Below, one piece after another: positions 7,679 to 64,000 of a DNA stretch of 64,000 bases. The notes under the pieces were generated by a model that did no database searches, had not been told where the DNA came from, and saw only the letters and a list, made by a program, of their open reading frames with translations. The stretch's first letter is position 1. Every line of letters starts with the position of its first letter. The position numbers were made by a program, and so were the translations under genes. Origin of the DNA: an uncultured bacterium (lineage in GTDB: Bacteria; Patescibacteriota; Saccharimonadia; UBA4664); the NCBI GenBank assembly GCA_963740635.1, contig CAVUEQ010000001.1, positions 593,026-657,025 of the forward strand, given 5' to 3'.

Positions 7679-8857
7679 TCAGCTCCCGAGCTCGGGATTG
7701 GCGGCCTTGGTGGCGGCGATGCACCGGACCAGGAAGGCCGAGTCATCGGCGCCGTTCGCGGTGCCCGTGACGTTCTCCAGGGGGAGCAGGATCACGTTGT
7801 TCGCCCCGTTGGTGAGGACAATGTGGGACATCCGCGCGACGTCGGCCGGTGTGACGAGCCGGTGGGCCGCGTGGAACGATGCGGCGGTTGCCGGGTCCGT
7901 GAGCCACCAGGAGAACTCCTGGATGATGCTCGTGGCCTCGTCACCATTGATCGCCTTCTCGGTCTGGGCGGCGGTCACCAGCCCGGACTCTCTGGTGTAG
8001 AAGTCCGGATAGAACCCCGTGCTGTTGATGTCGCCGCCGTACGGCTTCGACAGCCTGACGTTGTCCGAGACATTCGGCGAGAACAGGTCGTGGCCCGTTA
8101 TGGCCTTGATGCCCGTCCACGACTTCACTTCGGCGGCGCGCCGGCTGACCTCGGCCGGCAAGTGCTGCGTGGGCCCGTATTGCAGGACCACGAAGTACGA
8201 GATGAGGCCCGGCCGCTTGGCCACCAGCGTCTGGAGGTAGCTCTTGGCGCCGGCGTCGCCCAGTTTGTTGATCACGGGATCGACACCGATGAGCGGCGAC
8301 ATAGCGTTGCACCAGATGGCGCCGACGAGGTCGGACGCCGCCGACACCGGCACGTAGGCACCAAGGTAGGCGATCCCGTTGGCCCCAGCCTTCTGGAAGT
8401 CCGGGAGCGGGCCGAACGCGGCCTGGTCCGTGGCCGGTGGTCGGATGGCCTGGATCAGCGCGTGGCGCGGAAGCACGACCTTGGCCTGCCCGGGGCAGTC
8501 TGGGTTGAGGCCGGTGGCGGCGCCGGCCTTCGGCGGGCGGGGCGGGGCGGGCGTCGACGGCGAGCTGGTGCTGGGCGATGACGCGGCCGAAGAACTCGAC
8601 GACGCCGGTGAGGTGCTGCTCGCCGAGGTACCCACCAAACTGAGGGGCTGGGTGTTGGAGGTGGACTTGGCGGGGTCGTTGCCCCACGGCTTCGTTATGA
8701 GCGCCCAGCTCCCGAGCACGCCGATCACGATCGCGAGCACGATGAGGCCGGTGCCCACGGACGGTCCGCGGCGCTTGGGCTGATTCCAGTGCCGGTCGGG
8801 GGGCTGCTGGCCAGAGGGCTGGCTGCTGGGGCTGGTAGGATCACTCATGATCCGCAC
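7679..8857 (-). CDS. N-terminally membrane-anchored extracytoplasmic protein with a Ser/Pro-rich linker, function unknown
   Basis: 392 aa. TM helix GLIVLAIVIGVLGSWALI, then the linker SSTSPASSSSSAASSPSTSSPSTPAPPRPP, then a globular domain of about 270 aa. Confidence 0.75.
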   Translation of the reverse strand: MRIMSDPTSPSSQPSGQQPPDRHWNQPKRRGPSVGTGLIVLAIVIGVLGSWALITKPWGNDPAKSTSNTQPLSLVGTSASSTSPASSSSSAASSPSTSSPSTPAPPRPPKAGAATGLNPDCPGQAKVVLPRHALIQAIRPPATDQAAFGPLPDFQKAGANGIAYLGAYVPVSAASDLVGAIWCNAMSPLIGVDPVINKLGDAGAKSYLQTLVAKRPGLISYFVVLQYGPTQHLPAEVSRRAAEVKSWTGIKAITGHDLFSPNVSDNVRLSKPYGGDINSTGFYPDFYTRESGLVTAAQTEKAINGDEATSIIQEFSWWLTDPATAASFHAAHRLVTPADVARMSHIVLTNGANNVILLPLENVTGTANGADDSAFLVRCIAATKAANPELGS

Positions 8858-10559: not shown

Positions 10560-11216
10560 CTACTGGCAGTGGCGCTTTTCGTTAGTGATGCGAAAACTCA
10601 CAGGATCGGCCAGCTTATCCGCCCGCACAATGAGGTAGTGGTTGGTGAGCGCCTTCTCCACCCGGCAGGTGATGGTGGGCGTTGATTGCGTAACGCTAAT
10701 GGTGCTCCCAAAGGGTCCGGTATTAATGCTGGTGATTTTGAGGCTGTAACCCGTGGTAGCCTCGGGGCCGAGGGCGACGCCGGCGACGGTGGAGGCCGTA
10801 AAGTCGACCGGTATGAGCGGGGGCAACTGGGGCAGGCCGGCGTGAATTTGCCGCCAGTACTCCTCCCACCGGGCCTGCGTGTTGATAACGTCTTGGCGGG
10901 CGTCGGGCAGACGGGATTTGGTGTCGCCGTCCACGAGGATCTCGAAGTGCGTATTGGTGACGGGCGCACTGGTGGGCGGAGTGGGGGCGGGTGTGCCGGT
11001 GAAACTGCGGGGGCCGTCGCGGCAGATCGGCGGGTTGGTATCCAGGACCGGGTAGCCGGCATCGACGCAAGCGGCATACGAATCGATCGGCGAGGTGTAG
11101 CCGGCACTAAATACCACGGCGGCCGCACCCGCCAACACCGCGGCCACCGGGAGCTGCCACCAGCGGCGCTGCAGTAACGCCGCCATCAGGCGTTCGACGG
11201 GTAGGCGCCCAACCAT
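10560..11216 (-). CDS. PrcB-C-domain-like secreted/anchored protein
   Basis: 218 aa. TM/signal segment WWQLPVAAVLAGAAAVVFSAG. C-terminal pattern (VAGVALGPEATTGYSLKITSI...YLIVRADK) resembles the PrcB_C family. The start overlaps the upstream stop by 1 nt. Confidence 0.55.
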   Translation of the reverse strand: MVGRLPVERLMAALLQRRWWQLPVAAVLAGAAAVVFSAGYTSPIDSYAACVDAGYPVLDTNPPICRDGPRSFTGTPAPTPPTSAPVTNTHFEILVDGDTKSRLPDARQDVINTQARWEEYWRQIHAGLPQLPPLIPVDFTASTVAGVALGPEATTGYSLKITSINTGPFGSTISVTQSTPTITCRVEKALTNHYLIVRADKLADPVSFRITNEKRHCQ

Positions 11217-14041: not shown

Positions 14042-14287
14042 CTTATCTAGAATAGCAGTTGTGGTTTGCGAATAATAGTGCGGTTTCTGCTTGTAACTGG
14101 CAGGCTTATCGTCGCGCACCCATATATTTAGAAAAGCGGGTGCCACCAACGCGATGTATCCCTGTTTTAATACCATATATGATATCCCCCTGATACCATA
14201 TATGAGCTAAAAAACGCGATGCTCACCGGGACATGTACTCCTACACAAAAGTGGCGTCAACGGGACTGGCATTATTTATAAGAAAAC

Positions 14288-22270: not shown

Positions 22271-22307
22271 GAGCCGCTCTCTGCAATGCTGGGGGCGGTT
22301 CTTTTTT
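22271..22307 (+). terminator. Intrinsic terminator
   Basis: GAGCCGC...GCGGTTC (one G.U pair) followed by TTTTTT (22302..22307). Confidence 0.5.
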
Positions 22308-22364
22308 CGGTATCAGCATTTGCATGGTTCTCAAACCTAAACGCAACTTTGCGCAGCACAACGT

Positions 22365-23048
22365 TTACGGGATGACGGGCGTAGTGCCCGGGCCGGGATC
22401 TGTGGACCCGCCGGGGCCGGTGGAGTCGCCGAGCACCTGGCCGGCCGGGGGTGTGGGCTCGGGCACGGGCGTGGGCACCGGGCTGGGCGAGGGCACGGGG
22501 TCCGCCGTTTGGTTGCCGGGCGGCGTTGCGATGGGAGTGACGGCGACCGAGACCGGGCCGAGGTCGGCCTTGACGGCCACTGCCGGAATCACCTGGGGGT
22601 GCGCGATGCGTGAGGCGGCCGGTTTGGATCTGCCCGGCGCCGGGCGCACGGAGGCCGCGACGGCGCGCTCCGCCGGCGGCGAGACCAGCGGCGAGGGCAG
22701 CGGCGAGGCCTTGGTGTTTTCGGGATTGACGTTACGGACGATTTCGGTCCGCGGAGGCGGCGGGGCAGCTGGGGTGGGCTGGTGGAAAATGTGCGCCACT
22801 ACCTGCCCGCCGCCGGCCGCCAGTGCCAGCACAGCCAGCCCCAGCCCTAGCAGCACCAGCAGCGTGCCGGGCATGTGGTGGCGCAAAAAATCGTGCCGCA
22901 TCTTGATGGCCCGTCGGACGCGCTGCAGATCCCGGGGCGAGAGATATTTTGCCAGGTGGTTCACCGGTACACGGAAATTGCGGCCGTCTTTGAAAGCCAG
23001 CCACACGAGTCTATCGGTCTCAATGCTGTAGTTGGCGAGATCACCCAT
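22365..23048 (-). CDS. Bitopic membrane protein with a Pro-rich extracytoplasmic tail, unknown function
   Basis: 227 aa. A cytoplasmic N-domain, the TM helix GTLLVLLGLGLAVLALAAGGG, then a long P/S/T/A-rich tail. The opposite-strand ORF 22324..23031 looks like a GC-artefact. Confidence 0.65.
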   Translation of the reverse strand: MGDLANYSIETDRLVWLAFKDGRNFRVPVNHLAKYLSPRDLQRVRRAIKMRHDFLRHHMPGTLLVLLGLGLAVLALAAGGGQVVAHIFHQPTPAAPPPPRTEIVRNVNPENTKASPLPSPLVSPPAERAVAASVRPAPGRSKPAASRIAHPQVIPAVAVKADLGPVSVAVTPIATPPGNQTADPVPSPSPVPTPVPEPTPPAGQVLGDSTGPGGSTDPGPGTTPVIP

Positions 23049-25347: not shown

Positions 25348-25397
25348 TGAGAGCTAACTCATATTCTACTTTAATTATGGAACGATACATACACGTG

Positions 25398-25496
25398 GGT
25401 GTTCCAGTATATGGAATTTTCCGATGTTCTTAGCCTCAAATTTTGGACCGAATTCCATATACTGGAACACCTTTTGAATGCGCGTGAAAAAAATAG
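25398..25496. repeat. AT-rich hairpin element, copy A (21-bp perfect stem, 32-nt loop, conserved 3' tail)
   Basis: GGTGTTCCAGTATATGGAATT (25398..25418) pairs perfectly with AATTCCATATACTGGAACACC (25451..25471). The tail is TTGAATGCGCGT..AAAAAATAG. A near-identical element sits at 60250..60351. Confidence 0.85.
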
Positions 25497-25519
25497 GTTA
25501 TGGGCAGACCCGGAAGATA

Positions 25520-26860
25520 TTAATGTGGGCATGTCGACGGGACGGTCTCTCCGTTTACGAGCGATTTCATCCAGGCGGTGGTATCGCCGAAGCTGCGCAG
25601 CATGGTGTCGTAATGGGTGGCGCCGTGGTACACGTAATACCCCACCGGGCCGGTGCTGGAGGCGCAGAGCAGCGGGAAGGCGGCGGCTTGCTGGGCCGGC
25701 AGCACGACGTTGTCGAGGTCGCCGCCGTTGATGCGCTTGGCCGAGGCCGTGGGGTCTGTGCCGACGGCGTTGGCGTCTAGGCGGGCATTGAGCTGCGGGA
25801 AGGCGGCGCTGAGGTCGCCGGTGAGGGCGGCAGCGATGAATTCGGGGGTGTAGGTGGCGGACGGATTGTGCCCCCAGTAGCTCAGGTCGGTATCGATGCA
25901 GTGCGCCAAGACCTTGGCCTTGAGGTTGTCGAGGTGGACGGGCAGGATTACGCCCGGGTACTGCTCACCGTAATAATCTTCGTAGCTCACCAGTACGTTG
26001 GGCCCAAACCAGACAATATTGGCGCCGCGCGTGATGTCGGTGAGGGTCTGCTTGACGCTCATCACCGGCCCAAAGCCGACCACGCCCAGGATTTTTATGT
26101 CCGGGGCGTACCCGGAGGCAATTTTGTCGGCCCAAAAGGCCGCGTGGCCCCCCTGCGAATAGCCGCCCACGATCACCTTGCCGGCGGTGGGATTCACGCG
26201 GCCGCGGGCCTGGGGCAGGCGGCGCAGGGCGCGTACGCTGTCGAGCAGCGCGCGGCCCTCCAGCTCGCCGGCCATGTAGTGGTGGAGCCGGTTCGGGTCG
26301 CGCATGCCTTCGTAGTCGGTGGTGACGGCGGCGTAGCCTTGGACGGCATAGGCGGCCAGGTGCGCGTCGTAGGTGCCCCAATTGGCCTTGGCCGGCTGCT
26401 CCAGGCTGGAGGCGCACTGGTCGCCGATGCCGGTGGTGCCGGGCGCGAAGGCAAACACGGGCAGGCCCGAGTGCTGGTTGTCGGGGAGGTAGGCGCGGCC
26501 GTATTCAGTAATGAGCTGTCCGGACGGCAGCCGCGATTGGTAATGGAAGGTGATTTTGGTGATCGGGGTGGTCTCGCCCGGAACGCCGGCCGGGTAATCG
26601 TGGCGAATGAGGGCTGCGGTTTGGGCGGGCGTGAATTTTTCGACCGCATCCACCCCCAGCACGTCGCCGGCCTTCGGTGTGGGCGAGGGCGCCGGCGCGA
26701 ATAGATCCACGGCTGGAGCCGGGGACGGCGCTGTGCGGGCGGTCCAGTAGATCACGGCCACCTCAAATAACGCCGCCAACAACACCAAAATGAACCTAAA
26801 CCGCACCGTAAAATGCCGCCGGGCCTTGTGATGGCGCTTGCGGGGTGGCGTGGGCTTCAT
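25520..26860 (-). CDS. Membrane-anchored/secreted alpha/beta-hydrolase (lipase/esterase-like)
   Basis: 446 aa. N-terminal TM helix FILVLLAALFEVAVIYW. Nucleophile elbow GYSQGG. Confidence 0.75.
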   Translation of the reverse strand: MKPTPPRKRHHKARRHFTVRFRFILVLLAALFEVAVIYWTARTAPSPAPAVDLFAPAPSPTPKAGDVLGVDAVEKFTPAQTAALIRHDYPAGVPGETTPITKITFHYQSRLPSGQLITEYGRAYLPDNQHSGLPVFAFAPGTTGIGDQCASSLEQPAKANWGTYDAHLAAYAVQGYAAVTTDYEGMRDPNRLHHYMAGELEGRALLDSVRALRRLPQARGRVNPTAGKVIVGGYSQGGHAAFWADKIASGYAPDIKILGVVGFGPVMSVKQTLTDITRGANIVWFGPNVLVSYEDYYGEQYPGVILPVHLDNLKAKVLAHCIDTDLSYWGHNPSATYTPEFIAAALTGDLSAAFPQLNARLDANAVGTDPTASAKRINGGDLDNVVLPAQQAAAFPLLCASSTGPVGYYVYHGATHYDTMLRSFGDTTAWMKSLVNGETVPSTCPH

Positions 26861-29526: not shown

Positions 29527-29787
29527 GGCGGTTCTCGCGATTATGAGCGCATTATACTCTATTTTTGGCAAGCGGCTTTTGTTGGGTATTGCTTGTAATC
29601 ACAAGTCTCTCTCCGCCCCGTAACTTTTCGAATATTCATAATCGCAGATGTATAGCGAAACTATATAGTAATCTAATTATGGCTTCGCAGAGCGATTTGT
29701 TTTGGCTTAGGAAAGCCTTTCTGCAGATTAGTATGTAGTTTGGCTACGCATTTGGTCTGGAGAAAATGCCGGGCCAAAGAATGGATG

Positions 29788-58040: not shown

Positions 58041-59707
58041 TTAGAAGTGGTCGCGGATGTGGGACATGTTGAACTCCCAGTCGGCGTCGGCTTTTTTGTG
58101 CGGGTTAAAGATGTTATGCGGGTCGAAAATATGTCTTGGTTTCTTCGAACAGTAGCCGAAGATTTCCTGGCCGTACATCTCTTCCAGCCACGGCCCGCGG
58201 ATCATGCCGTCGTTGTGCTCGCCGGAAAGTACGCCGCCGTATTTTAGCACCAGTTCATTAACTTCACGCATGGCCGGCGGAGTTTCTGGCGCTCGTGCGG
58301 GTCTTCGATCTTCATAAGCGGAATGACGTGGAAGTTACCGTCGCCCATATGGCCAGCCATGGTGGCGAAGAGTTTGTATTTCTTGATGATCTTGCGCAGT
58401 TTGGGCAGAAATTCCGCAGATGCGCGGCGGCACCACCAAATCATCTATGAACGGCGCCGTGTGCTTATCTTTGACTTTCTGCTCAGCAACTGAAAGCTTT
58501 CGCGGCGCATGATCCAGAACTTGTCGGCTTTGACCTCGGTATCGTCTTCTTCCAAGCCTTCAATTTCGTATAGGCCCGCTTGGTCACAAGTTGCGGTCGC
58601 ATAGCGTGGACCTTTTCCCGAACCTCTTCCGCGGTATCAGCCGTGAATTCCACCAGCAGTACCATTTTGGGGATGCCCCTGAGCAGCAGCAGGCCGTCGG
58701 GATGAAGCTGATCAAGCTAATTTAAAAAGCCGCCCCGGCCAAGCATTTACGGAAAATAGGGCAAGAATTTGATGGCCAGCATCAGCGTGACGTCGTCAAA
58801 AGATTCGAAAGTGGCCGGTTGTGCTTGCATTACGTCTTTGATGAGCTCGCCCAGGTGTTCAATGTCCCTCAGGAAAACCACCAGCACGCCGGAATGCGGG
58901 CGGTGCGGGACGAGCTTGAAGTGTGATGTCGGTGGTGAGGCCGAGCGTGCCTTGGGCGCCGACGATGAGCTTGGTCAGGTCGAAAATGCCGGTCTCGCGG
59001 TCCCAGACGTCCCACAGGTTGTAGCCGGTGGAGTTTTTGGTGACGTGGGGCTTGGCGGCTTTTTGATGGCGTCGTAATGCTGGTCGACGAGCTCGAAGGT
59101 CTGGCGGTAGACCTCGCCCTCGAAGGTGGATAGCTGCATTTTGTTGTCGAGCTCGGCCTTGGTGAGCGGGGCAAAAGTCGTACTCATTGCCGTCGGCCAG
59201 CACGACTTTGAGCTCGGTCACAAAGTTTTCGGTTTTGCCGAATTCGAGCGACTTCTCGCCGCCGGAGTTGTTGTTGACCATGCCGCCGATGGTACAGAGG
59301 TCGCGGCTGGCGGGGTAGCTGGGCATGAGAGCTTGGTGCTCGAAGGTGGCCTTTTCGAAGTCGCGGTAGTACACGCCGGGCTGGGCGTGGCCGCTCTCGG
59401 AGGTGACCTCGAAGATCTGGTTAAAGTGCTTAGTGAAGTCGGCCACTATGGAGTCGCCGACGGCCCCGCCCGACATGTTGGTGCCGGCGCTGCGGGCGGT
59501 GATGGAGAGGTTGGAGTTGGCACTCTTGGTTTTGTGCTCCTTGGCGTACTTGACTAGCGCTTGCACGTCCTGCGAGTCCTTGGGATACACCACGACCTGC
59601 GGCTTCACCTCGAACAGGCTGGCGTCGTGGGAGTAGGATTCGAGGGTGGCGGGAGCGGTGTCGATTTCGCCGGACAGAATGCGGGAAAGATCTTCTTTGA
59701 GGCTCAT
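58041..59707 (-). pseudogene. FAD-linked oxidase (GlcD / D-lactate dehydrogenase family), disrupted by multiple frameshifts
   Basis: Family-typical peptide segments are spread over five ORF-track fragments in different frames (58859..59797, 58975..59187, 58483..58665, 58244..58444, 58041..58271). Examples: GTNMSGGAVG; TGYNLWDVWDRETGIFDLTKLIVGAQGTLG; MAGHMGDGNFHVIPLM; SGEHNDGMIRGPW...FDPHNIFNPHKK. My manual reading needs about 9 frame changes, several at A/T homopolymers. Confidence 0.8.
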
Positions 59708-59768: not shown

Positions 59769-60128
59769 CTACTCCGTTTTAAACCCGCCGAGACCAACCG
59801 GCTCGAGGTAATGGTGCTCCACCGCCTCCACCCGGGCCTCGGACGGCCCGCGATGGCACCAGGCCAGGAACTGCGTGAGCGCGGGCTCGGGCCCCTCGGC
59901 CTCTAGATACACCGAGCCACCGGGCTCGTTGCGGGCCAGGCCGGCCAGGTGCAGATCGGCCGCACAGCGGCGGGCGCTGTCGCGAAACCACACGCCCTGC
60001 ACCTTGCCGGTCACGCGCACGGCCAGCCGCCGGACCTCGCCGTCCGCCCGCAATGGTCCGGCCGTTTGAGAACCGATTGCGCGAATGGTCGGCACCCCTT
60101 CGTCATCCAGGAAAACTTTATTAACCAC
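59769..60128 (-). CDS. acyP: Acylphosphatase (with an uncertain N-terminal extension)
   Basis: 119 aa from a GTG start. The core RLAVRVTGKVQGVWFRDSARR...G.ARNEPGGSV.LEAEG matches the acylphosphatase signature. Confidence 0.78.
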   Translation of the reverse strand: MVNKVFLDDEGVPTIRAIGSQTAGPLRADGEVRRLAVRVTGKVQGVWFRDSARRCAADLHLAGLARNEPGGSVYLEAEGPEPALTQFLAWCHRGPSEARVEAVEHHYLEPVGLGGFKTE

Positions 60129-60249
60129 GATATATTAATAGCATATTGTGGGGCCGTGATCATGGTGAGGAAGGCCGAAATCAGTGAGCTCGACCGGCTT
60201 TTCGAGCGGGGATAATTGCACTCGAATTTTCAACTTACCCACTCCATGG

Positions 60250-60351
60250 GGGTGTTCCAGTATATGGAATTTCTCCGGTTTGGTGAGGGGAAAGTATTCC
60301 AAAAATTCCATATACTGGAACACCTACTTGATGCGCGTATTCAAAAAATAG
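60250..60351. repeat. AT-rich hairpin element, copy B
   Basis: GGTGTTCCAGTATATGGAATT (60251..60271) pairs with AATTCCATATACTGGAACACC (60304..60324). The tail is CTTGATGCGCGT..AAAAAATAG. Same orientation as copy A. Confidence 0.85.
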
Positions 60352-60386
60352 CATAGTGGATGAACTTAGCCGCTGTATTTTAGCGC

Positions 60387-61691
60387 CTACAGGCGAATAA
60401 GTTGCTCGCGGGAGCGGCCGACTCCCACGAAACTCAGCTTGGCGCCGGGCATGTTGGAGGTGAGGGCGGCGGTGTAAGCTTGGAGGCTTGGGGGAAGCGC
60501 ATCGAAGGCAGTGACGCCCTCCAGCTCGGCAGTGGTCCAGCCATCGAACACTTTGTACTCCGCCCGGCAGCTTTCGAGGAGGCTGTTTTCGGTCTGGAAT
60601 TCGCAGGGCTGGCCATCGGCGCCGGTGTAGCCGGTGGCGATTTTGAGCTGGCCGAGGCCGGCCAGGGTGTCGACCTTGGTGACGGCGATGTTGGTGAAAC
60701 CATTGAGGCGGTGGGCGTAGCGGGCGGCCACGCCGTCGAAGAACCCGATGCGGCGCGGGCGGCCGGTGGTGGTGCCAAACTCCTGGCCGGCATCGCGGAT
60801 GGTATCGGCTAAACGGCCATGCAGCTCGGTGGGCATGCCGCCGGCGCCCACGCGCGTCTGGTAGGCCTTGAAGATGCCGACCACTTTAGTGAGCGCGAGC
60901 GGCGGCATGCCGGCGCCCACGAGCAGGCCGCCGGCGGTGGAATTGGAGGCGGTCACCATGGGGTAGGTGCCGTGGTCGAGGTCGAGCAGGGTGCCGTGGG
61001 CGCCTTCGAGCACAAAGCGGCTGCCGCGTGCCAGGTGCTGTTCCACCAGCGGTTCGGTGTCCCGGATAAACGGCCGCAGCACCGCCGCTGCCTCGCGGAT
61101 AAAGTCTTCGTAGTAGCCGGGGTGGAGCACCGGGTCGTCCACGCCCAACGCGCGGCGCTTGCCCTCCAGCACGGCGGCAAGCTCCTTGAGCAGGCGGTCG
61201 GGAGTGAGCAGCAGGCGGGTGTGGAGGCCGATGCGCTCGGCCTTGTCCATGTAGGTGGGGCCGATGCCGCGCTTGGTGGTGTCGATGCGGTTTTTGCCCC
61301 GCAGCTGCTCCTGATGGCGGTCGATGAACAGGTGGTAGTCGAACGCCAGGTGCGATTTGGGGCTGATCACGAGATTGTCAAACGACACGTGTTGCGCTTG
61401 CAGCTCCCCGATTTCTTTCATGAGTGTCTTGGGGTTGAGGGCGACGCCCGTGCCAATGATGTTGAGCGTGTGCGGGTTGAAAATGCCGGCCGGCACCAGG
61501 TGCAGGCCGAATTTACCGTGCTCATTAATGACGGTGTGGCCGGCGTTGTCGCCGCCCTGCGACCGAATTACAACCTGCGCCTGAGTTGCCAGATAGTCGA
61601 CGATCTTGCCTTTGCCTTCGTCGCCCCACTGCCCGCCGATCACTGCAATAACTTCAGATTGCTTCACGAAAGTTATTGTACAGGGGAACAC
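60387..61691 (-). CDS. purA: Adenylosuccinate synthetase
   Basis: 434 aa (start uncertain: GTG 61691 or GTG 61667). GGQWGDEGKGK and GTTTGRPRR. Confidence 0.95.
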   Translation of the reverse strand: MFPCTITFVKQSEVIAVIGGQWGDEGKGKIVDYLATQAQVVIRSQGGDNAGHTVINEHGKFGLHLVPAGIFNPHTLNIIGTGVALNPKTLMKEIGELQAQHVSFDNLVISPKSHLAFDYHLFIDRHQEQLRGKNRIDTTKRGIGPTYMDKAERIGLHTRLLLTPDRLLKELAAVLEGKRRALGVDDPVLHPGYYEDFIREAAAVLRPFIRDTEPLVEQHLARGSRFVLEGAHGTLLDLDHGTYPMVTASNSTAGGLLVGAGMPPLALTKVVGIFKAYQTRVGAGGMPTELHGRLADTIRDAGQEFGTTTGRPRRIGFFDGVAARYAHRLNGFTNIAVTKVDTLAGLGQLKIATGYTGADGQPCEFQTENSLLESCRAEYKVFDGWTTAELEGVTAFDALPPSLQAYTAALTSNMPGAKLSFVGVGRSREQLIRL

Positions 61692-62729: not shown

Positions 62730-63024
62730 AATCAGTTAATCTCCCCTTAATGGAATGCTCGAACATGCTCCGAGCACCCGCATTATGCCAGTACAAACTG
62801 ATAGGAAGCTTATAAAGCGAGTGTTGTTGTGATGCGTTAGTTGTTTTCGGGAGTTTACGCGTGTGCCGGAGGTATACCGAAATCCGGACTCCTCCAAAAA
62901 CCATCTCGAATAATGCCTTTGCCAAGCCTCGAATTGTAAGGAGAATTGAAGCTGTCCGGAATCCGGTATACCACTGACCTATGCAGCGTTCCCTAAATAA
63001 CGAGAGATCGCTATTAGGTTGTAA

Positions 63025-64000
63025 TTAGTGGCCGAAGAAGCCGCGTGCGACGGTGTCGGGGAGTTGGACGAGGGTGACGTTTTTGGCTTTGCAGAGGTCG
63101 GCCGTTTCGGCGTCGCGGACTGAGCCGGAAGTGGCGACGATGGTGGTGATGCCGGCGCCTGCGAGGACCTCGGGGCCGTCGGGGAACGGGAAAAAGGAAT
63201 CGGAGTAGGCGACGCCGCCGGCGAGTTTGTGGCCGGCGTGCGGTGGCGCGCTTGATGGCCAGTTCGCAGCAGCTCACGCGGTCTTGCTGGCCGACGCCGT
63301 TACCGAGCAGTTGGCCGGATTTCACCAGCGTAACCGTGTTGGAATTTGACGTGCTGCCGATGGCCCAGGCCAGGATGGCGTCGCGGGCTTGGGTGTCGGT
63401 GAGTTTGGCGGTGGCGGTGAGGCCGGGGTGTTTGAGTTCGAAGATGAAGGTGTAATTGGGCTGGCTCAGGAAGCCGCCGCGGACGGGACGTCGGATTGGG
63501 CCTTGAGAGAGGGATTTTTGAGTTAGCTTGGCGAGAGCGGGGTTGGCCATGAAGCGGCATTTGTCGCCTTTGCGGGCCAGCGCGGTGATGGCGCCGGGGG
63601 TGAAGCCGGGCGCGAAGATGGCGTCGAGGAGGCGGCGGCCGGCGGGTTGGGCGTGGGTGAGCAGGAGGTCGGCCAGGGCATCCGTGATCTCGAAGTTCAC
63701 GCTCACCAGGCCGCCGAAGATGGCACGCGGGTCGCCGGTGACCATGGCCTTGATGGCTTCGGCCGGGGTTCTGCCGACGCCGGCGCCGCAGGGGTTGCCG
63801 TGTTTGGTGCCGAGAGCAATGGCGGGGACGTCGCCGAAGTTGAGGTCGAAGCCGGCCGCGATGTGGGTGATGGTGTGCAGGTGGCGGTCGAGTTCGGCCA
63901 GGTTGTTGTAGCTGGGGGCGGCGCCGGCGATGAGCTCGAAACGATAGAGTGCTAGCGGGTCGGGGTCCGGCCCGGGGTTGGTGCCGTAGAGGCCGGCCGG
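63025..64000 (-). CDS. purH: Bifunctional AICAR transformylase / IMP cyclohydrolase; 5'-partial (N-terminus beyond the window end), with an apparent 1-nt frameshift near 63231..63240
   Basis: The frame is open from 64000 (…LGTKHGNPCGAGVG…DPRAIFGG…GQQDRV…AIKRATA). The family C-terminus (GHKLAGGVAYSDSFFPFPDG...SGSVRD...RGFFGH*) then continues in another frame and ends at stop 63025..63027. The ORF track shows 63014..63745 with an Arg-rich out-of-frame tail. Confidence 0.85.

Follow-up and report, generated by a model that had tools for sequence, protein, structure and literature searches.

We have identified, in a 64,000-nt stretch of the genome of an uncultured bacterium of the Saccharimonadia (GenBank assembly GCA_963740635.1, contig CAVUEQ010000001.1, positions 593,026 to 657,025; hereafter the window), two AT-rich hairpin elements, copies A and B, which are best read as young, intact members of a lineage-specific set of non-autonomous, hairpin-carrying repeats in a GC-rich Saccharimonadia clade. 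Presence or absence of the element at orthologous spacers, together with its REPIN-like architecture, makes a REPIN/BIME-like reading the best supported one, and we put the probability that the elements belong to a dispersed family of inserted repeats, selfish or formerly mobile, at roughly 0.55. The mechanism of spread is one that we infer. The unit measures ~150–200 bp and consists of a 5′ tail (T-run plus TAYKCGYR box), a 7-nt spacer, a stem of ~19–21 bp in which each arm has its own short palindrome, an unpaired loop of 32 nt (64 nt in a diverged member, copy C) and, in some members, a 3′ extension. The analysis covered these 64 kb of the host genome and ~180 kb of loci from relatives; the nearest other genomes (Saccharimonadia, TM7, Patescibacteria) show 70–81% protein identity.

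The 21-mer GGTGTTCCAGTATATGGAATT occurs at exactly four sites in the window (25398 and 60251 on the plus strand, 25451 and 60304 on the minus strand), with 0 expected by chance. No extra site was found in the window at up to three mismatches, nor were half-arm copies found elsewhere in it. The four sites form two hairpins, each with a perfect 21-bp stem of 38% GC and a loop of exactly 32 nt. In copy A, arm 1 (GGTGTTCCAGTATATGGAATT) lies at 25398–25418, the loop at 25419–25450, and arm 2 (AATTCCATATACTGGAACACC, which reverse-complements arm 1 without a mismatch) at 25451–25471. The hairpin core of copy B spans 60251–60324, with the same arms at 60251–60271 and 60304–60324 and a loop at 60272–60303 that is unlike that of A. 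A preliminary description of this DNA had reported identical 21-bp arms in the two copies, which the four exact sites and the perfect stems bear out (42 of 42 bases), and a separate palindrome, TTCCA-N5-TGGAA, in each arm, which is indeed seen in all of them (in arm 1 of copy A at 25402–25416). Such arm-internal palindromes have p = 0.03 for A and B and p = 0.005 for a related element, R, from another genome. Two details needed correction. Copy B had been started at 60250, whereas its arm starts at 60251, and the loops had been given as 32 and 30–32 nt; they are similar, as stated, but both are exactly 32 nt, the value of 30 applying to copy B only if one extra possible pair extends its stem to 22 bp.

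Outside the stem, the tail TTGA(A)TGCGCGT..AAAAAATAG is common to A and B (local alignment, p = 0.001), so that the conserved tail reported earlier stands; about 40 comparisons of flanks and loops were made, and the key ones (p ≤ 0.001) survive correction. The left flanks of the two copies show no significant likeness (local alignment, p = 0.27), and neither do the loops (p = 0.52, or p = 0.19 when reverse-complemented). The inverted repeat ends at the 21-bp arms, with no significant extension or terminal inverted repeat (TIR) beyond them. The 5′ tail of copy A (25472–25519, minus strand) carries the box CACGCGCA (25479–25486), which starts 15 nt before the stem, and the T-run CTATTTTTTT (25488–25497); the 3′ extension, CACGTG TATGTATCGTTCCATAATTAA, occupies 25371–25397 on the same strand. 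In copy B, the 5′ tail (60325–60360, minus strand) has the box TACGCGCA (60332–60339) and a T-run (60343–60351), and lies at least 26 nt after the purA stop codon (60387–60389). Plus-strand mini-ORFs (open reading frames) of seven codons can be read by eye after both tails, MGRPGRY-stop in A (25500–25523) and MNLAAVF-stop in B (60366–60389); the two share no sequence and probably arose by chance. The elements had been described as markedly AT-rich in a GC-rich genome. The window is GC-rich, at 60.7% overall, but the contrast is not special to the elements, as ~40 spacers inside it fall below 42% GC.

Evidence of insertion comes from the surroundings of copy A. Its neighbours, both on the minus strand, are a gene of the secretory-lipase family and a PLD/cardiolipin-synthase-like gene (Pfam), and those of copy B, also both on the minus strand, are purA (adenylosuccinate synthetase) and an acylphosphatase gene (Pfam); the genes named earlier are thus confirmed, the one first called an esterase belonging to the secretory-lipase family. 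The lipase-to-PLD spacer is 187 bp in the window versus 31–32 bp in four relatives with the same gene order (L033, L038, L039 and L217). When the spacers are aligned, the extra 149 nt (25371–25519, minus strand) fall exactly between the lipase stop codon (25520–25522) and GTAGAATA (25363–25370), a −10-like box that is kept upstream of the PLD gene in all compared genomes. Since the adjacent PLD-to-nucleotidyltransferase spacer is unchanged at 30 bp, the copy A block is not part of a general spacer expansion, and since the block is absent from the four relatives, copy A is, on this comparison of sequences, a discrete insertion relative to them.

At the site of copy B, the purA-to-FAD-oxidase interval, gene content is different in every relative, and the next gene there starts 0–20 nt after purA; copy B is therefore specific to this lineage, and its boundaries are not definable. 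The interval (59769–60386 in the window) corresponds to L035:11282–12553, L216:11279–12017, L219:11273–12023 and L222:7609–8306, in each of which the small genes differ, with, for example, a 140-aa membrane protein, or a 91–97-aa gene plus a SpoIIAA-like gene. The acylphosphatase gene is found in the window only, among the genomes compared, which makes the interval a hotspot of local gene turnover.

A covariance model, a type of search that the preliminary description had suggested, was derived from copies A and B and run without filters on the window and on the relatives' loci; it returned two diverged members with E-values that are rough because of a shortened calibration: element R in L033 (match 7960–8031, E = 0.0025) and copy C in the window (match 62853–62972, E = 0.03). 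Element R (L033:7959–8032) follows a plus-strand gene, 47 nt after its stop codon, and is located between convergent genes beside a canonical GC-rich terminator. Its arms, AGTAGTCTAAAGTTTAGACAT and CTGTCCAAACTTTAGACAACC, differ from those of A and B within the same 21/32/21 layout, pairing at 17 of 21 positions in that register and at 19 of 22 over a slightly wider stem; each arm holds a 15-nt palindrome, GTCTAAA-G-TTTAGAC, and the loop is exactly 32 nt. At the syntenic window site (~22290–22370), no significant remnant of R was detected (p = 0.16–0.24). Copy C (62856–63000, plus strand) comprises the box TACGCGTG (62856–62863), a hairpin (62871–62972) whose arms GGTATACCGAAATCCGGAC (62871–62889) and GTCCGGAATCCGGTATACC (62954–62972) pair at 17 of 19 positions around a 64-nt loop, and a 3′ extension (62973–63000). 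Unlike those of A, B and R, its arms contain no single 15-bp dyad. The spacer that houses it, between purH and the next gene (62812–63024), is 213 nt long, versus 12 nt before a conserved promoter-proximal sequence in L222 and L223. Two genes beside copies B and C have disrupted frames: purH, adjacent to C (63028–64000, minus strand), leaves its frame with ~70 codons still to come, and beside B the gene for the FAD-linked oxidase (58044–59707, minus strand) is broken across frames −1, −2, −3 and −1. Both are either pseudogenes or products of assembly indel errors and, since the latter are possible, the lengths of the T and A runs in the tails should not be over-read.

The homology of the four elements is also supported by evidence that does not depend on the model. 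Each of them has the TAYKCGYR box (copy A, CACGCGCA; copy B, TACGCGCA; R, TATTCGCA; copy C, TACGCGTG), with its first base exactly 15 nt ahead of the stem; in R it is outside the model's match, on the side opposite to the model's expected placement. The 3′ extension of A (TATGTATCGTTCCATAATTAA) agrees with that of C (TATGCAGCGTTCCCTAAATAA) at 17 of 21 positions, with the two stretches equally distant from their stems (p < 0.001), and this homology stops exactly at 25371, the insertion boundary of A as set from the relatives. The loops of A and R are identical at 18 of 32 positions in register (p = 2e-4). With the box as reference, local alignment matches the loop of A to that of R (p = 0.0075) and of C (p = 0.0145), results that are supportive only, and does so only when the loop of A is reverse-complemented, which indicates that the inter-arm segment stands in opposite orientations in different copies. 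Copy A is thereby a mosaic, with arms and 5′ tail as in B, 3′ extension as in C and loop as in R and C.

The stems were compared in register by script, because MAFFT failed to put R in register. Between A and R, nine pairs are unchanged, eight are changed on both sides, none on one side only, and four are broken; between A and C, the corresponding counts are ten, seven, none and four. G–U intermediates are not seen among the changes. As far as these alignments go, the arms of the family vary by paired substitutions, whereas part of the loop and the box 15 nt upstream are kept. The earlier picture of conserved arms around a free loop consequently applies to the A/B pair only. Likewise, the loops are unrelated between A and B, as had been claimed, but they are not free sequence, that of A being homologous to that of R.

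The members lie at non-syntenic loci in two genomes, and all of them start 41–62 nt after a stop codon. They occur in both orientations relative to transcription: in A, B and R the box comes first when the upstream gene's sense strand is read, and C is reversed. Copy C, as well as a further candidate hairpin called D, also sits in a spacer that is ~150–200 nt shorter in relatives. Candidate D (29653–29746, plus strand) is an AT-rich hairpin after guaA that emerged from a hairpin scan, with 19 of 21 positions paired, a loop of ~50–58 nt and TAATCGCA 14 nt upstream; its predicted fold has −45.8 kcal/mol (z −3.9), and its arm holds the palindrome ACTATATAGT. Its spacer is ~150 nt longer than that of L033, which has a canonical GC-rich terminator there. 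No significant sequence similarity was found between D and A, B, C or R. AT-rich hairpins with long loops were also noted in two relatives, one in the atpB–atpE spacer of L219 (19864–19925; the spacer is 115 nt there and 58 nt, with no hairpin, in the window) and one in the rpe–tkt spacer of L220 (19079–19132); both have a family-like architecture with no significant sequence similarity to the family, and are candidates only. In addition, the AT-rich spacer ahead of a pfkB-family kinase gene contains ATACCATATATGA twice, 34 nt start to start (14158–14220 of the window).

The position and folding of the elements could also suggest a structured RNA that the host has selected in a 3′ untranslated region or operon spacer, where it would act as a barrier to 3′ exonucleases, an RNase III site or a terminator independent of a U-tract, and would uncouple expression of the upstream gene (lipase, purA) from that of the downstream gene. 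The predicted folds of A and B are very stable on both strands (−39 to −46 kcal/mol, z −5 to −8 relative to shuffled sequences), stems are maintained through changes on both sides, the placement shortly after stop codons would suit such an RNA, and candidate D takes the place of a canonical terminator of L033. However, the orientation relative to transcription is not constant, C being reversed, and the loop of A is flipped. The lack of G–U intermediates among the stem changes, and arms in A and B that are identical in sequence beyond what mere pairing asks for, also speak against it, as do the canonical GC-rich, T-tailed terminators that exist in these genomes, one of which adjoins R. Moreover, the Rfam search proposed earlier yielded no family match: with Rfam 15, there were no matches at the gathering threshold in the whole window, and permissive scans of the A and B loci gave only generic matches to miRNA-precursor hairpins far below threshold. 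We consider a host-selected RNA unlikely on balance.

A second alternative takes the arms as paired operators in duplex DNA, each arm being a 15-bp palindrome for a dimeric regulator and co-evolving in sequence with that protein in each genome. The dyads fit well with this (TTCCA-N5-TGGAA in the window, GTCTAAA-G-TTTAGAC in L033), as does the identical spacing in A, B and R. The two sites are 51 bp apart centre to centre, or ~5 helical turns, and thus on the same face of the helix, where a tetramer could bridge them. Operators would further explain how A and B can have 42 of 42 identical arm bases around different loops, and copy A precedes the −10-like box of the PLD-like gene by 27 nt. Yet R is positioned between convergent genes beside a terminator, where no promoter is expected, and C has different arms in the same genome, with no single 15-bp dyad. 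Regulator sites are rarely invariant over 21 positions, asymmetric ones included; the entire block is an insertion absent from relatives; and no adjacent regulator gene was found in a domain search of the window. Operators therefore appear distinctly improbable to us. The promoter and binding-site motifs with which the arms and tail were compared by eye (sigma-54, ECF, sigma-70, parS, NrdR, PurR, CodY, FNR and the DnaA box) fail in spacing or in key bases.

The variable loop orientation raises a third alternative, in which the arms would be core sites of a tyrosine recombinase, either in an attC-type folded single-strand site or in an invertible switch whose 32-nt segment is inverted enzymatically. 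The 5-5-5 layout of the arms (two inverted 5-bp boxes with 5 bp between them) and the variable central region do resemble attC geometry. The outer bases, however, read GGTGTTC...GAACACC, and extrahelical bases are lacking in A and B; what flanks the copies are conserved core genes and not cassettes; no integrase is encoded in the window; a centre spacing of 51 bp is too close for synapsis in duplex DNA; and loop flips have a simpler, replication-based explanation. We give this alternative very little credence. An integron attC site as such was rejected on the same outer bases, which are not RYYYAAC...GTTRRRY, on the perfect stems and on the core-gene neighbours.

Several other identities were considered and set aside. 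An intrinsic (Rho-independent) terminator does not fit a stem of 38% GC and a loop of 32 nt against the criterion of 3–8 nt; scans for sigma-70 promoters and intrinsic terminators were empty at both copies, in line with the earlier remark that the element is not a typical terminator, and canonical GC-rich, T-tailed terminators do occur in the relatives' DNA. With regard to coding, either strand of each copy has two frames out of three that lack stop codons, and the ORF ends differ between copies. The tail differences between A and B look synonymous in one frame (Leu-Leu-Asn/Asp-Ala-Arg), and peptide words from the ORFs found no match at E ≤ 10 among 5.8 billion predicted proteins. This is consistent with the view that the MFQYMEF ORFs are by-products of the repeat. 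The two copies are not the attL and attR of a 35-kb island, since either flank is collinear with relatives and housekeeping genes (ATP synthase, aspartate-pathway, purine and lipid genes) occupy the DNA between the copies. A CRISPR array or tracr-like element is inconsistent with the inverted repeats, with a 32-nt "spacer" of A that is conserved in another genome and with the absence of Cas domains from the window. Finally, a classical MITE was rejected because the arms are internal to the 149-bp block, with 48 and 27 nt beyond them, and are not terminal inverted repeats. The option of a MITE-like or REP-like repeat, which the preliminary description had listed among others, is thus the favoured one, given the inserted copy A and the diverged members at non-syntenic sites in both orientations, although not in the classical MITE form.

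A number of observations count against dispersed inserted repeats. Only three supported copies are present in the 64 kb, and one in the ~180 kb of relatives' loci. The loops and 3′ flanks of A and B do not match, as those of recent transposition products should, and the loop of A is nearer to that of another genome (R) than to that of B. Stem changes on both sides could have a mechanical origin in any inverted repeat of DNA and are no proof of selection. A domain search with Pfam detected no transposase, integrase or HUH/Y1 domain among the ~60 ORFs of the window. As to duplication-like sequences, ATTAA is present at both junctions of A, and imperfect direct repeats (9/11) surround B, with an estimated probability of ~0.4 at random; no target duplication of consistent length or sequence was found across copies, the ATTAA may be chance, and the block ends are not inverted repeats. 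Searches of sequence collections, which used exact or core-anchored patterns of the A/B arms in a family whose arms vary, were also negative. None of 185,579 species-representative genomes contains the exact arms (an 18-mer gave 32 single chance matches in unrelated taxa), and neither do the viral contigs of IMG/VR, where a 16-mer gave 53 single chance matches only; both arm cores gave 0 matches in the JGI metagenomes; and blastn against phages and plasmids returned nothing relevant.

A degenerate scan of metagenomes for TTCCA-N5-TGGAA occurring twice found no asymmetric inverted arms among the matches listed, which does not show their absence. At least 120 metagenome contigs carried clusters of three or more 19-bp palindromes, TTTTCCA-N5-TGGAAAA, with spacing that alternates between ~22 and 30–31 bp (for example L097:1038–1170, L111:653–833, L133:199–349 and L175:1050–1170). 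Some contigs have several clusters, as at L117:2058–2125 and 10814–10881, and many come from digester or bioreactor samples, going by their names. In L117, an ABC-2 permease and an RNB-domain protein are encoded next to the clusters, which therefore do not mark a dnaA–dnaN origin. The clusters look like a separate, abundant repeat or binding-site family that has only the TTCCA-N5-TGGAA core in common with the hairpins.

Because arms are identical while loops and 3′ flanks are unrelated, simple recent transposition is insufficient to explain A and B, and the inserted-repeat reading needs an extra assumption. This could be selection by a sequence-specific protein that binds the arms, or a short-patch conversion that altered one arm, after which the palindrome corrected itself. 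We propose that the blocks would spread, or would have spread formerly, by insertion into spacers right after stop codons, and that the arms may be recognised by a trans-acting protein encoded elsewhere in the genome; such a protein would account for the 42/42 identity of the A and B arms despite divergence elsewhere. The loop may have been flipped through intrastrand template switching across the hairpin, which would require no recombinase and is the simplest cause suggested by analogy. Any effect on the host would be incidental: a hairpin of about −40 kcal/mol in operon spacers could alter read-through and mRNA decay. A REPIN-like single-strand mechanism of the HUH type specifically is a tentative suggestion that we rate as possible but rather unlikely. 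More speculatively still, and in our judgement doubtful, the family could be a REPIN-like intragenomic replicator of the candidate phyla radiation, hosted by a ~0.8-Mb genome that would be expected to be streamlined, with a putative arm-binding enzyme that keeps the arms identical within a genome; the arms would then differ between genomes, the loop would diverge and flip freely, and insertion would take place within the first tens of bases after stop codons.

Genomes of the candidate phyla radiation are very small, and little is known of how such genomes change. A hairpin family that has lengthened operon spacers between core metabolic genes would show that selfish or semi-domesticated palindromic DNA persists in them; the affected spacers are those after the lipase/PLD pair, purA and purH, and possibly guaA. 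The family would give strain-typing markers, and a protein that recognises the arms may exist. If the replicator reading were true, it would mean a new element–enzyme pair and possibly a new single-strand transposition system. The practical value of the finding is modest unless there are many genomic copies or a partner enzyme. In our literature search, no REP, REPIN or MITE-type repeats turned up for Saccharimonadia or the candidate phyla radiation. On the best reading, the hairpin family in Saccharimonadia appears new, whereas the kind of element, palindromic insertion repeats, is already known.

Among known systems, the nearest parallel is with the REPINs described by Bertels and Rainey, in which the inverted ends are invariant and the spacer is conserved to a lesser degree, its length being of importance (PMC3116915). 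Like the REPINs of Pseudomonas fluorescens SBW25, which are mobilised by RAYT transposases (PMC3116915), the elements described here have two inverted, near-invariant ends, each with a short palindrome. In both, the length of the spacer is kept more than its sequence (21-bp arms and 32-nt spacers in A, B and R), the whole unit folds as a long hairpin, the location is extragenic and the flanking sequence is asymmetric. However, REPINs are present in tens to hundreds of copies with a single-copy RAYT gene, compared with the three to four copies visible here (two identical and one to two diverged in the 64 kb). The REPIN spacer is largely paired, whereas the 32-nt loop is unpaired, and our unit extends past the arms by 48 and 27 nt. 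RAYTs have been discussed for Gammaproteobacteria, the literature search gave no report of them from the candidate phyla radiation, and the host phylum is a different one. A tetranucleotide like the 5′ GTAG of REPINs abuts the stem in B (CAAGTAG followed by GTG) and lies inside the arm of R (AGTAG); the corresponding bases are AAAG in A and GGAG in C.

In E. coli, BIMEs consist of the same inverted REP arms joined by linkers of unrelated types and fixed length, and A and B, with identical arms and unrelated loops of equal length, recall this arrangement. The REPs in BIMEs are GC-rich, ~35 nt long and have short loops, and BIMEs bind IHF, gyrase and Pol I. They are not known to have sequence similarity to the hairpin element. 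The MITE-like ERIC and Correia elements of enterobacteria and neisseriae, at 100–170 bp, are found in transcribed spacers in both orientations, form long hairpins and are known to alter mRNA stability; the hairpin blocks resemble them in size, in insertion into transcribed spacers, in hairpin folding and in occurring in both orientations. Correia elements are bounded by terminal inverted repeats, duplicate a TA target and have an internal sequence that is conserved among copies; our blocks, by contrast, carry their repeats internally, with loops that diverge and flip. Such flips have a counterpart in the non-coding DNA of chloroplasts, where short segments between inverted repeats of ~10–25 bp are found in either orientation in different lineages, with no dedicated recombinase. 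The likeness lies in the variable orientation of the loop; the difference is that inversion in chloroplasts is a mutational event at fixed loci, with no dispersed repeat family.

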